NCBI GenBank assembly: GCA_964016885.1
Contig: OZ024740.1
Location: 1,116,001-1,180,000 of the forward strand
Source: Eledone cirrhosa
Taxonomy: Eukaryota
Reading direction: 5' to 3'
DNA: 64,000 nucleotides
The first letter of the stretch is position 1; each line of letters begins with the position of its first letter. Shown here one piece after another: positions 8,668 to 15,914 of the stretch. The translations under genes were made by a program, and so were the position numbers. The notes below the pieces were generated by a model. The model did not search any database and was not told the origin of the DNA. It saw only the letters and a program-made list of their open reading frames with translations.

Positions 8668-9255
8668 ATATATGAAAAATATGGGGGAGAAGAATACTGC
8701 ATGGTTGCACATGGATAACATGTTATAAAATGAGTCCCTCATCAGTGATTTGCCAACGATCATTGGTATTTCATCGCATTAAAAATCATATACCTCACGT
8801 TGGAGCGATAATAACTAAAATAAGTTATTAGGACAATAGAAACACGTAAAGCGAGTGAGACAAGTAAACAACACAGGGGAAAGCTAACCGAAGATGGAAA
8901 TAAACACAAGCAACATGGTTATTCTTTCAGCATAAGCTGTGTGAATATATGTGCGAGTTAGAAACAGACCTTTCGCTAGTGAATCCGATGTTAGAAAGAA
9001 GGAAAATCATTTTCGAAGCGAACGGGAGGAAGTAAGAAGGGGAGAAACAGGGACTGAGTGAGTGGGAGTGCGAGGAAGAGGTCAGTAGAGAGAAAGTGTT
9101 AACTGACATGACAGAGGGGACGAAAGAAAGTAAGAGAAACAGAGAGAACGAGGGAGCAGTAAGAGAGAAAGAGAGAAACACAGAATCGCAGTTTAGGTAA
9201 ATATATGAAAAATATGGGGGAGAAGAATACTGCATGGTTGCACATGGATAACATG
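8668..9255 (-). mobile_element. Family-D retrozyme-like element: 533-bp monomer plus ~55-bp terminal direct repeat
   Basis: tatgaaaaatatgggggagaag..acatg at 8671 and 9204; contains the permuted hammerhead motif 8734-8834. Confidence 0.7.
8734..8834 (-). ncRNA. Permuted, pseudoknotted hammerhead-core RNA with kink-turn (diverged copy)
   Basis: Minus strand: gtcc t aataac..gttatt a tcgc t ccaacg t ga ggta TA tgattt ttaat gcga t GAAA tacc aat ga t cgttgg c aaatca CTGATGA g ggac. Confidence 0.75.
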
Positions 9256-9399
9256 GATAACATGGTGGTCTGGTGGGAGATACCAGAGATGGTGGAGGTC
9301 CTGCTCTGGGGTTCAATCCTGGTCAGGAGATAATCTAAGGGGGTTCATACTAAACTTCTTCAGTGTTTTTTTATCTCTAGAGACAAATATATATACATA

Positions 9400-10295
9400 A
9401 GGTAATCTGGTAAAGTTGTTAGAACATCACATAGAATTCTTTGTACTATTTTTTCCAGTTCTTTAATCTGAGTTCAACTTTACCTTTCTTCCATTCGGGG
9501 TTGATAATAAAGTACCAGTCAAAAAATACTAGGGGTTAATTCTTCCTCTATATCTCACTCTCTGTCTTTCTCTGGAAGAAATCTGTTTTATTCCGACCTG
9601 GAGAAGTTTTTTTTTCTAGAGAGAAAGAGAGACTTTTGTTATGTATTTAAACGTAAATTTTTTTCACTGGACTTTGAATTCCTTTTTCTTCTCTTTAGAT
9701 TGAATAAACCTTAACATTTTACGTCTACAATTATATTTACCTTAACTCATGTTAATCTTTACAGTCAAGGACCTGTTTATACTCCATCATATAAACACAT
9801 CAATCTTGTTTTGTTTTTCTTGCACTGATGGAGTCATAGGGGTGTCACTGTGGACATTTGAAGCTTGGTGGAGCCCTTCACTCACCAGGTTGGAACAGAT
9901 GATTTCTTCCAGAGAAGGAGAGAGAATGAGAGAGAAGTGAGATAGAAATATAGAGAGGATGAACAGACCCCTGTGGTAGACTGGTACTTTTTTGTTATCA
10001 ACCTTGAATGGATGAAAGGCAAAGTTGACCTCAGCAGGATTTAAACTCAGAGAGCAGAGAACCAGAACAAATATGGGAGAAAGCATTCTATCTATTGTTT
10101 TATAGACTTTAAATAAATGTTTCTACTTTTAACTCAACCCCAGTGCATTACTGGTACTTTATTTTACTGAACCTCTGAGGAAGAAGAGTAAAGCTAACCT
10201 CAGCAGGATTTTAATACAGAACGTAAAGGGATGTAACTATATGACACAAAGCATATCGTCTGACACTCTACTAATTCTGCCAATCCACCACCATC
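9400..10295. mobile_element. Three degenerate Meta-type SINE copies (~9400-9540 +, ~9975-10090 -, ~10120-10295 -)
   Basis: Decayed cctttc.tcc.ttcggggttgataa..aagtaccag motif and its reverse complement. Confidence 0.6.
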
Positions 10296-10759
10296 ACCAA
10301 TAAAATAAAATTGTGTCTCTATAAGAAACCTTAATGACAAATAATATGAAGTAGAACTTTCTACAGGGTGTATTTGTGGATTACAATACAAAACCTCTGA
10401 GAATGATTTCTAACATATTTCACCATAATAAATGTTCATTAATATATATTAATATAATTATTATTTATTAGGTCAGGTGGATTGGCCAGAACAATTCTAC
10501 ACTTCTTTTTTAGATGTCATGATCTTCCATGGCATTCCTGAGATCATTAATCTCCAGCTGGACATCCAGAGACATCTGATCTATGTAGGTCAATCTCAGT
10601 CATCCTACTAGGGTCTTACTATGTTTAGGTATCTACCACAGGAACCAGCTCATCAGGTTATCCTACCCTCAGTAACAATATATATATATATATATATATA
10701 TATATATATATACACACAGACAGACACACATATATATATTTATTTTCTTCTTTCCAGAG

Positions 10760-11221
10760 TGTGTTTGTATATTTGTGTGTTTCACATTTCACAGTGATGG
10801 GGTTTATCACTAGTGTTGACTACATTTGTGAACAAGTAGCGAAAAATTCCATGTGAAAGATTTCTCACATATTTCACAACGGAAGGGTTTTTCTCCAGTG
10901 TGACTCCGTATGTGGATGACAAGATTAGAATTATAAGTGAAAGATTTCCCACATATTTCACAGTGGAAGTGTTTTTCTCCAGTGTGTATTTTCCCATGTG
11001 AGGATAGTTTCAGTCTTGAAGAGAAAGTTTTCCTGCAAATCTCACAGCTATATTCAGACATATTTCTAACTAGTGATCTTTACATACAGGATTCTCACCA
11101 CTTCTACTGATACATTAAGATATGTAGATATGGTTAATAGTTACCATTTAGTCTAATATACTGTGTCCATAAAAGACTGCAGAACTCCGCTTTCTTCTTC
11201 TACAAAGTTGTAATGTAGCAT
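10760..11221 (-). pseudogene. C2H2 zinc-finger pseudogene (~3 fingers, stops and frameshifts)
   Basis: ORF 10810-11061 has CEIC..H..HTGEK repeats ending at a premature stop; upstream frame from ATG 11221 is broken; shares EYSCEICRKTFSS with the 37584 gene. Confidence 0.8.
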
Positions 11222-11314
11222 TTAGTTGGTACAAGTAATAAGACATATGACAGCGTAAGACTGATCTTGGATTAAGAAAAAGCTAGTGCTTATATATATG
11301 ATGATAATGATGAT

Positions 11315-11505
11315 ATCATCATCATCATCATCACCGTTTTACCTCCATTCCTCCACGCTAGCATAGGTTAGACGTGTTGTCCTGTTGTGGGCAGTGTCCT
11401 GTCAGCTGACCTTGTCTTGCTCATACGGGAACTGATTCTGGCTTGATTTCTACAGCTGGATGCCCTTCCTAACACCAACCTCATTTACAGTGAGTGCTGG
11501 GTGCT
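11315..11505 (-). mobile_element. RTE/SINE 3' tail fragment in the pseudogene intron
   Basis: (cat)n plus ggatgcccttcctaacaccaacctcatttacagtgagtgctgg. Confidence 0.65.
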
Positions 11506-11885
11506 TTATATATATATATATATATATATATATAAGTGATTATTGTGGAGCATACCACTATTATTTTTGCTAAGGTGAGAGAAGCTCTATTCACAATAAC
11601 ATCCTCAGCTCATAAAACAAACGAATAAGCCTTCCATAGTTAAGGTTCTTGTTATTGAGGACAGTTCAGGTGACAAGAGAATTAATATCCATAATTTTAA
11701 AAGACAAATGTTAATATATATACATATATATATATACAGACATACAGTGTGTACGTATGAGAGAGAGAGTTAGACGTGTGTGTAGAAATATGTGTGTACG
11801 TGTTGTAATAATCAAGATATTTCACTTTAGATACTAGAAAAGTTCACAATGTTTGTGTTGTGATGGAAAATGAAATAATACGTAC

Positions 11886-14180: not shown

Positions 14181-14491
14181 ATATATATATATTATATATA
14201 TATATATATATATATATATATATTTGTATTTGGTTGTTCTCTCTCTCTCTCTCTCTCTCTCTCTCTCTCTCTCTCTATATATATATATATATATATATAT
14301 ATATATATATATATATATATATTTGGTTGTTATGTCTCTCTCTCTCTCTCTCTCTCTATATATATATATATATATATATATATATATATATATCTTTGTG
14401 TATGGTTGTTATGGCTCTAGATAAAGTCTACTGAGCTTCCTTATTGAGAAACACAAAATTCTAAACATATTTGATGTTATATACTCAAATA

Positions 14492-14882
14492 ATTGTTTCT
14501 ACTTTTGGCACAAGGCCATCAATTACCCAGTACATTACTGGTACTTTATTTTATCGACCCCGTAAGGATGAAAGGCAAAGTTAACCTCGGCAGGATTTGA
14601 ACTCAGAATGGCAAGGGCCGTAACTCTATGCGTCAAAGGATGGCGTCCGACCCTCTACCAATACTGCCAATCCACCGCCCTATTATATACTCAAATGTGG
14701 ATTGGCAGTATCGGTAGAGGGTCGGACGCCATGCTTTGACGCATAGAGTTACGGCCCTTTCCATTCTGAGTTCAAATCCCGCCGAGGTCAACTTTCCCTT
14801 TCATCCTTATGGGGTCGATAAAATAAAGTACCAGTAATGCACTGGGTAATTGATGGCCTTGTGCCAAAAGTAAAAACAATTA
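14492..14882. mobile_element. Head-to-head inverted pair of Meta-type SINEs
   Basis: 14492-14680 (-) and 14697-14882 (+) are near-perfect reverse complements. Confidence 0.85.
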
Positions 14883-15011
14883 TTTGAGTATATATATATA
14901 TATATATATATATATATATATATATATATATATATATATGTGTGTGTGTGTGTATGTATATATATATATATATATTTTGTTTGTTTACACTCGTGTCCCC
15001 TTTATTTACGT

Positions 15012-15113
15012 GTCCCAACGACTTTTTTTAGCCGTTGCTCGCACCAACCGGAGGTATATGGTCTTTAAAGCGATGAAATACCAATGATGGTTGGAAGATC
15101 ACTGATGAAGGAC
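15012..15113 (+). ncRNA. Permuted, pseudoknotted hammerhead-core RNA with kink-turn
   Basis: ggta-TA(15057-15058)-tggtct...GAAA(15075-15078)-tacc...agatca-CTGATGA(15102-15108); helices covary with 8734-8834. Confidence 0.75.
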
Positions 15114-15641
15114 TAACTTTATTCATATGTAACCCATTAGCAACCCAGCAGCACGTTTATTCTCATATTTACACATATTTTTTCCCCCTGCTGTTACCCG
15201 TCTATTTCGTTCTTACTGCTTCCTCTTTCTCTCTATCTTTACCCTCTCTAGCAGTCACTCTCTCTGTTAGCCTCTTCCTCACCCTTCACTCACTCATTCT
15301 CCGTTACTCCTCCTCCTCCTTCTTCCCGTTTGACCTGTGCGTAATTCTTTTCTTTCGCACGCTTGGCCAGGCCGGTCGGCATTTTTTCTCTCTCTCGTCT
15401 ACGATTTCACAGAACTTATGTTTACCGAATTCACAGACTAGACCCCTTCTTCCTCCCGTTAGACCTGTGCGAAATTCCTTCCTTGCTCACATTTCAACCA
15501 GGTTTGATGGTCTTTATTCTCTCTCGTTCACGATTTCACCGAATTTAAATTCATAGGAATTTGGGACTTGACTTCTTCTTCCTCACTTTTCGTTGCTTCA
15601 CCATTTTTGTTTGTTTACACTCGTGTCCCCTTTATTTACGT

Positions 15642-15743
15642 GTCCCAACGACTTTTTTTAGCCGTTGCTCGCACCAACCGGAGGTATATGGTCTTTAAAG
15701 CGATGAAATACCAATGATGGCTGGAAGATCACTGATGAAGGAC
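15642..15743 (+). ncRNA. Second copy of the permuted hammerhead-core RNA
   Basis: Same as 15012-15113 except ggctgg for ggttgg. Confidence 0.72.
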
Positions 15744-15914
15744 TAACTTTATTCATATATATATATATATATATATATATGTATATAAACATGATAGTCA
15801 CGGCTGGAACAACTTTAATTATAAGTCTGCTCAATCATACTAACATTGGATTTAAATTGAGCAAAGTTGGAGTTGTCTCCCTTGGTACTTTACTACGTTA
15901 CGTTTGTTTATATA

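Follow-up and report, generated by a model that had tools for sequence, protein, structure and literature searches.

In a 64,000-nucleotide (nt) window of the Eledone cirrhosa genome (positions 1,116,001 to 1,180,000 of contig OZ024740.1), three non-coding elements, here named E1, E2, and E3, are likely to be 5′-truncated copies of three high-copy families that were copied into (TA)n by the reverse transcriptase (RT) and endonuclease of a Penelope-like element (PLE) acting in trans. As part of the same reading, E1 and E3 contain a predicted self-cleaving hammerhead ribozyme with its blocks in the order cleavage site, GAAA, CUGAUGA (type SGC, non-circularly permuted), a ribozyme that is likely derived from the 3′ ends of Naiad PLEs. 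The type of element is already known, as non-autonomous PLE derivatives and retrozymes; what is new here is a predicted hammerhead that combines the SGC order and a split stem II and occurs both in the genome of an animal and at the ends of Naiads. No description of a permuted hammerhead in PLEs was found in the open-access text searched. All genome searches covered the 3.0-Gb E. cirrhosa assembly. The elements are located in the window as follows.

8671-9264, minus strand: E1, a non-autonomous element of a 533-nt unit plus ~57 nt, with its 3′ end at (TA)n near 8671 and a 5′-truncated end near 9264
13277-14176, plus strand: E2, a non-autonomous element of a 729-nt unit plus ~172-176 nt, with (TA)n on both sides
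14975-15757, plus strand: E3, a non-autonomous element of a 630-nt unit plus ~153-157 nt, with (TA)n on both sides
15315-15584, plus strand: an internal direct repeat within the E3 unit (~130 nt, 71% identity)

The terminal direct repeats lie at 8665-8732 and 9198-9264 in E1 (period 533, 68 nt, 94% identity), at 13275-13451 and 14004-14180 in E2 (period 729, 177 nt, 94%), and at 14975-15131 and 15605-15761 in E3 (period 630, 157 nt, 99%). None of the elements has coding capacity, as the longest ATG-initiated open reading frame (ORF) on either strand of the circularised unit is 102, 39, and 32 amino acids (aa) in E1, E2, and E3, respectively, and a motif search finds one hammerhead motif per unit in each. 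These results bear out a previous sequence-only reading of the window, which had described terminal repeats with these periods, no coding ORF, and one motif per unit. The adjacent (TA)n that it also described is present on both sides of E2 and E3, while E1, which is read on the minus strand, carries it at the 3′ (left) end only. E1 and E3 form one superfamily on opposite strands, with 79% identity across the ribozyme region, and E2 is unrelated to them by sequence. In the assembly, first-look candidates number 3,837 for E1, 3,105 for E2, and 2,536 for E3, and the 40 candidates scored for each show 95-100%, 90-100%, and 94-100% identity. Only E3 holds a second ribozyme copy, the repeats of E1 and E2 being without a second cleavage site; therefore, only in E3 could two cuts set free a unit (630 nt, 15059-15688). 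The cleavage positions 15058 and 15688 that had been predicted for it, with a 630-nt unit between them, are reproduced exactly by our descriptor. The minimum free energy of the circular unit is clearly lower than that of crude shuffles for E2 and only about 2 standard deviations lower for E1 and E3, and none of the folds is rod-like. A second contig (L033, L064; C27, 15.56 Mb) also carries E1 and E2 between the same flanks, and this region of the window appears to be segmentally duplicated. A diverged (77%) E2-family fragment with its end near (TA)n is located at 2-96.

In the best-scoring copies, counted with the duplicate loci L016, L033, and L064 left out, the 3′ ends are fixed relative to the cleavage site. 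All 29 E1 copies end 121-128 aligned nt beyond it and 27 of the 29 E2 copies end 188-193 nt beyond it, while E3 has two end points, one at 70-73 nt (18/29) and the other at 120-124 nt (10/29). The 3′ ends of all three families abut (TA)n and the 5′ ends are scattered. In vitro, a PLE tail of 30-40 nt is defined by two internal RT start sites (PMC11167929), and the 47-nt spacing between the two E3 ends parallels these starts, 30-40 nt apart. A motif-chosen sample without length bias contains 78 3′-terminal copies among 99 motif copies, and 75 of them were aligned. Upstream of the last cleavage site, the median extent of the aligned copies is 381 nt; most are shorter than one unit, 16 attain one unit, and none attains two, the two longest ending at 1202 and 1236 of 1260 nt. 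This length distribution places the form of a monomer plus a bit among the longest members of a truncation series. Tandem repeats of at least two full units are absent from these 75 E1/E3-type copies, and the top E2 matches reach up to ~1.8 units. Partial tandems are present in all three families, and inverted pieces were observed in 10 of 30 E3 loci and in none of the 30 E2 and 30 E1 loci, among the loci listed. A copy of the E4 subfamily (L121:3500-4140) contains an inverted 77-nt piece of its own tail, resulting in a period of 645. Fixed 3′ ends, an optional tail, variable 5′ truncation, and partial tandems are together the insertion signature of a PLE, for which fixed-end and 5′-truncated, partial-tandem, and inverted insertions have been described (PMC8557442). 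With this signature and no ORF, the three elements agree with their earlier description as non-autonomous and retrozyme-like.

We propose a cycle in which a more-than-unit copy would be transcribed and the ribozyme would cut once per unit. Probably, either a host ligase would circularise the unit or a template jump would cross the cut. A PLE protein acting in trans would prime internally at (TA)n, with the tail site as the RT start; RT would run across the cleavage site so that longer insertions repeat part of the unit, until random 5′ truncation ends the copy. The copy of a monomer plus a bit would then be the form that is able to seed the next round. E2 may follow the same cycle with its type I hammerhead, which is of the ordinary dimer type and resembles the hammerheads of Hydra PLEs.

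The sequence that is present twice within one insertion is informative about the template. Minor family variants found in both passes versus in one pass number 113 vs 18 in E2, 23 vs 9 in E1, and 32 vs 35 in E3, where the expected sharing from random templates is 0.13-0.17; sharing far exceeds this expectation, clearly in E2 and E1 and at about half of the sites in E3. In addition, rare variants are present in both passes at 19 sites in E2, 3 in E1, and 5 in E3. The shared minor and rare variants indicate that one template lineage was copied twice. This would fit a circle with a fixed internal start, a model already proposed for PLEs (PMC4209133), and an RT jump from one RNA to another of the same source locus would fit equally. 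A serious rival, to which we assign somewhat less than an even chance, is a route without circles, in which the template would be an uncleaved, linear transcript made by read-through, or RT would jump from one linear RNA of unit length to another from the same locus. The absence of copies at two full units and the ends of the longest ones just short of that length are as this route would have them, as is the behavior of E3, in which about half of the variant sites differ between the passes, and uncleaved RNA was the dominant substrate of a purified PLE in vitro (PMC11167929). However, the rare variants in both passes need one template to be copied twice at some step, pure read-through would be expected to shorten the copies in every generation, and circular forms accumulate in the case of the related retrozymes of animals (Cervera & de la Pena 2020, PMC7229834). 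RNA circles are compatible with the genomic data, and both the circles and the cleavage are predictions. Contigs from two sequencing runs of unrecorded kind span the unit and are uninformative on ends or circles. Among the first 100 rows listed, the TA-flanked 5′ ends, counted by eye, occupy 34 distinct places. The 12 positions running inward from the cut contain 25 of them and the next 19 positions upstream contain 9; 3 coincide with the cut itself and ~14 are at a TA microhomology 9-10 nt inside. A 5′-end cluster of similar size is located 35-41 nt inside the previous cleavage site (5 E3 copies). The clustering near the cut is compatible alike with cleaved templates, with stalling on structure, and with microhomology.

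The predicted ribozymes of E1 and E3 are the following.

8734-8834, minus strand: SGC-order hammerhead of E1 (predicted) with split stem II, H17 at 8789 and CUGAUGA at 8745-8739
15012-15113, plus strand: first SGC-order hammerhead of E3 (predicted), H17 at 15058
15642-15743, plus strand: second SGC-order hammerhead of E3 (predicted), H17 at 15688, followed by a ~70-nt tail to the 3′ end

An SGC descriptor matches exactly these three sites in the window (15058 and 15688 on the plus strand, 8789 on the minus strand) and none in 40 shuffled windows. The exact SGC motif pattern has 4,215 matches in the assembly, with 0 for the reversed control, and 0 in a motif scan of metagenomes. Rfam returned no ribozyme family among the 150 listed of 178 window matches, nor among the 9 for E2. 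All core features of the SGC type, CUGAnGA, GAAA, the A15.1-U16.1 pair, and a non-G H17, are present in E1 and E3. Their non-circularly permuted order, the most novel aspect of these elements, had gone unmentioned in the sequence-only reading. In the first ribozyme of E3, the splint GUCC (15012-15) is followed by a hairpin (15016-37) and UCGC (15039-42). The helices downstream are 15044-49/15089-94, stem III (15053-57/15078-82), and stem I (15059-64/15096-15101), and the 3′ part contains GCGA (15070-73), GAAA (15075-78), CUGAUGA (15102-08), and GGAC (15110-13). The C and G blocks have no mutual stem II beyond at most one pair (80% of rows). The upstream strand pairs with the GGAC after CUGAUGA-N and, past the hairpin, with the GCGA before N-GAAA, resulting in a predicted four-way junction. 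Pistol, hairpin, HDV-like, and twister folds, considered on their consensus features, were dropped because the three hammerhead blocks and stems I and III fit exactly, and a type II reading was rejected because there is no UH site between GAAA and CUGAUGA.

Covariation was assessed in 55 copies with less than 96.5% mutual similarity, taken from 156 distinct copies, the rows being chosen on the core motifs. In the 34-pair structure, 94.1% of the cells are paired and 16 of the 34 pairs show two-sided changes. None of 500 shuffles equaled the real structure, and slid controls are 28-45% paired; the shuffle test is inflated by related rows, and the independent events amount to a few subfamily-level switches among four subfamilies. 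The two-sided changes affect 3 of the 6 pairs of stem I, 5 of 6 both in the upstream hairpin and in the helix that prolongs stem III, and a single pair of the splint; in the UCGC/GCGA helix, one row has such a change. Stem I is 96% paired, as is stem III, although the latter is without two-sided changes in this set and was partly selected on. Further SGC families with a different stem I were also found, with 314 matches and, in three families, 86 matches (controls 0). Their stem I has a mean of 5.8 and 5.15 of 6 pairs, compared with 1.6 and 2.7 when slid, these averages being over 15 and 40 loci with one locus counted twice. All of their examined members are non-coding. The three families with 86 matches (L181-L220) are older, with 67-92% identity among copies and different stems, and suggest successive parasite waves.

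The unusual stem II affects how the fold can be interpreted. The core can be read as having a one-pair stem II, or as having a canonical G10.1-C11.1 stem with an extra nucleotide and an opened link to G12. Such an extra nucleotide is typical of PLE hammerheads (PMC4209133), and the variable N favors the G10.1-C11.1 reading. Self-cleavage is known for natural SGC-order RNAs (Eckert et al. 2023, PMC10085705), and seven families that differ in their stem sequences all keep CUGAnGA, GAAA, the A-U pair, and the non-G H17 exactly in register relative to stems I and III. Both points make it unlikely, in our estimate, that the SGC-order fold is real but not self-catalytic, for example one that the PLE protein recognizes or takes as a start signal, or an RNA that needs a protein cofactor. 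This alternative is favored by the lack of a direct stem II between the C and G blocks and by the core-flanking nucleotides, which pair in only 80% of the rows, and it agrees with the poor cleavage of minimal PLE hammerheads in vitro (PMC4209133).

Naiads have been reported to be without canonical hammerheads, with eight ‘half-core’ cases flagged (Craig et al. 2021, PMC8557442). We compared the predicted ribozyme with a subset, read by eye, of the consensus 3′ ends among the 54 Naiad sequences published with that report. The consensus ends of Naiad_Obim and Naiad_Ovul appear to have the same SGC architecture and the same hairpin-loop motif, this architecture is also seen at the end of three Acropora Naiads and of one more consensus (place 31), and stems I and III and the extension helix were seen in Naiad_Esco. 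The architecture thus spans octopus, squid, and coral consensus sequences. In several nematode Naiads, the consensus 3′ end has the block order C-S-G with complete stems I, II, and III; CSG is the second non-circular permutation of Eckert et al. (PMC10085705). The SGC motif is absent from the consensus text examined for Naiad_Omin and Naiad_Adux. Naiads also target (TA)n and produce partial-tandem and inverted insertions (PMC8557442). They are therefore like E1 and E3 in their targets, in these insertions, and, by eye, in the ribozyme architecture in which the consensus sequences named above end. In contrast to E1 and E3, they contain an ORF with an N-terminal GIY-YIG endonuclease and a C-terminal RT, and the ribozyme module alone is recognisably shared.

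We lean, by a small margin over even odds, toward a broader proposal. Naiads would have a ribozyme after all, namely a monomeric hammerhead, active and non-circularly permuted, with a stem II that is interrupted and reconnected through a four-way junction (SGC in cephalopods and corals, CSG in nematodes). In this genome, it would have spawned successive waves of non-coding parasites, 500-680 nt long, which excise RNA of unit length, form circles, and outlive their Naiad parent by using the enzyme of another PLE. Besides the E3 differences, the in vitro substrate, and the predicted state of the cleavage and circles noted above, several observations weigh against the main reading of E1-E3 given at the outset. 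Activity cannot be assumed, because the G and C blocks are without the direct stem II of validated SGC ribozymes. Stem III, the UCGC/GCGA helix, and three of the four splint pairs show little or no covariation among the core-selected rows. The assembly has nine matches to the Naiad RT motif, all decayed, with 65-85% mutual identity and many stops; no SGC motif was detected 3′ of the RT in these nine remnants, and three other Naiad patterns gave 0 matches in motif-limited searches. The identity of up to 100% among E1 copies indicates that a live enzyme acted recently; with no live Naiad found, the recent driver of E1 was probably an unsampled Naiad or another TA-targeting PLE. A protein search with a Neptune-type endonuclease gave four short proteins, none useful, and a generic descriptor gave one match on PLE tails, being too strict to classify them. 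At L101 (oriented 1-1580) and at L140:1141-4079 (L110, duplicate L112), a 5′-truncated SGC element lies head to head with a truncated Neptune-like PLE. These junctions represent two independent events among the 78 copies and are without (TA)n. They hint at another TA-targeting PLE as the driver, and a target deletion could give the same arrangement.

If the Naiad-ribozyme proposal is true, animal genomes would have their first family of non-circularly permuted ribozymes. Such a ribozyme would give a directly testable answer to a stated puzzle, in that Naiads ‘lack canonical hammerheads’ because the descriptors used do not match their block order, and Naiads rank among the most abundant invertebrate PLEs. 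SGC hammerheads have been found in metatranscriptomes only and in no genome of a known organism, save for one bacterial GCS candidate (PMC10085705). The non-circular permutation would move from uncultured metatranscriptomes to animal chromosomes, where it has thousands of copies. The type-SGC hammerhead, as in HRIMA-1, shares with E1 and E3 the S-G-C order, stems I and III in register, and a short linker from stem I to the stem II side. Unlike in E1 and E3, which would use an upstream splint and a four-way junction, its stem II pairs the C and G blocks directly, so a hammerhead architecture with a split stem II would be added.

Animal non-LTR retrozymes are similar to E1-E3 in being non-coding, with one hammerhead per unit, low GC content (35-43%), and a proposed dependence on PLEs, and their type I dimer-type ribozyme is like that of E2. 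Their units are 170-400 nt in one survey (PMC7229834) and 51-972 nt in another (Li et al. 2026, bioRxiv 10.64898/2026.07.22.740005); E1-E3-type units, at 503-729 nt, are longer than the former and inside the range of the latter. While retrozymes are tandem arrays, E1-E3 are dispersed, 5′-truncated (TA)n insertions, none of which was sampled at two full units. Retrozymes carry a type I hammerhead, whereas the predicted ribozyme of E1 and E3 is SGC-order and so invisible to type I descriptors. The Naiad-ribozyme proposal would imply that surveys for type I motifs in tandem repeats miss a large class of retrozymes, and the short young families would be a clean system to ask whether PLEs copy circles or jump templates.

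The possibility that E1-E3 are merely the 3′ ends (tandem pseudo-long terminal repeats, pLTRs) of coding PLEs is, in our view, very improbable. Truncated PLE copies should show the same end pattern, and the ribozyme design is common to Naiad 3′ ends; however, in many independent copies the sequence upstream of the ribozyme leads back, after 503-680 nt, to the tail, and the units have no similarity to the Hydra units of the window. The sequence-only reading had itself named such fixed-ended attachment to coding elements as its refutation and had asked for a check of RT ORFs. The termini are indeed fixed at the 3′ end, while 0 of the 78 sampled 3′-terminal copies is joined to a same-strand PLE ORF; a PLE match lies within 600 nt of the 5′ end in 7 of the 78, 5 of these on the opposite strand and 2 being ends of ORFs at the outer limit of the flank. 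Reverse transcription of free RNA circles from random starts can be given hardly any weight either: E1 and E3 do duplicate different parts of homologous units, which had been taken as circular permutations and hence as evidence for circles, but the 3′ ends are fixed in all three families, only the 5′ ends vary, and the single E1 end matches the second E3 end, so E1 and E3 are not random circle rotations and differ by the choice of two start sites and by 5′ truncation.

E2 and the neighboring PLEs carry the other hammerhead type, and their features are listed below.

13877-13996, plus strand: predicted type I hammerhead of E2 (motif blocks)
23128-25593, plus strand: intact 821-aa Hydra-clade PLE ORF with RW-, DKT, and CxCX5C motifs, plus a GIY-YIG-like domain at the C terminus
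30319-32802, plus strand: second intact Hydra-clade PLE ORF of 827 aa with RW-, DKT, and CxCX5C motifs
12947-13249, no strand assigned: inverted pair of pLTR pieces of the 23128-25593 Hydra element, each with a type I hammerhead (H17 at 13196 on the plus strand and 13000 on the minus strand)

The E2 hammerhead consists of a 4-bp stem I, an 8-bp stem II with a ~75-nt insert, and a palindromic 8-nt stem III, with CUGAUGA at 13881-13887, GAAA at 13981, and H17 at 13992, and its blocks are intact in 28 of 30 copies. Since a palindromic stem III marks the dimer-dependent kind of hammerhead (PMC4209133), the predicted E2 ribozyme is an ordinary type I hammerhead of the dimer type. In its long insert and in the U that flanks stem II on either side, it resembles Hydra hammerheads, both those in a published table and those in the pLTRs of the window. 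Because of this resemblance, E2 may have descended from a Hydra element, though it has no sequence homology to one. The Hydra-clade assignment of the two ORFs is based on motifs given in PMC8557442, and Pfam gave zero matches for either ORF. The pLTRs of both neighbors carry type I hammerheads with a long stem II and a palindromic stem III, like that of E2, yet the Hydra units and pLTRs have no nucleotide similarity to E1, E2, or E3 at E ≤ 0.01. Thus, the suggestion that the three elements are parasites of the neighboring PLEs is not supported, as these are Hydra-clade elements with type I hammerheads and no similarity, and the predicted ribozyme of E1 and E3 is of the Naiad kind.

Further remnants of the two Hydra elements were observed in the window. 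Solo pLTR pairs in inverted orientation, derived from the two elements and bearing type I hammerheads with a long stem II, lie at 12947-13249 and 6862-7315, and additional pLTR copies are found at 22217-22404, at 26589-26758, and near 27234 and 36486. An inverted-repeat family with 198-nt arms (95%), unrelated to E1-E3 and without the hammerhead core motif, is present at 14478-14894 and also at 6450-6660, 40100-40287, and 10100-10292. Two related copies of a CUGAUGA-containing repeat that ends at (TA)n are located on the minus strand at 10560-10670 and near 53345, and the descriptors found no ribozyme fold in them. The remaining ORFs include a 478-aa C2H2 zinc-finger array at 37482-38918 and RTE-like LINE ORFs at 46076-48655 and 54682-56664.

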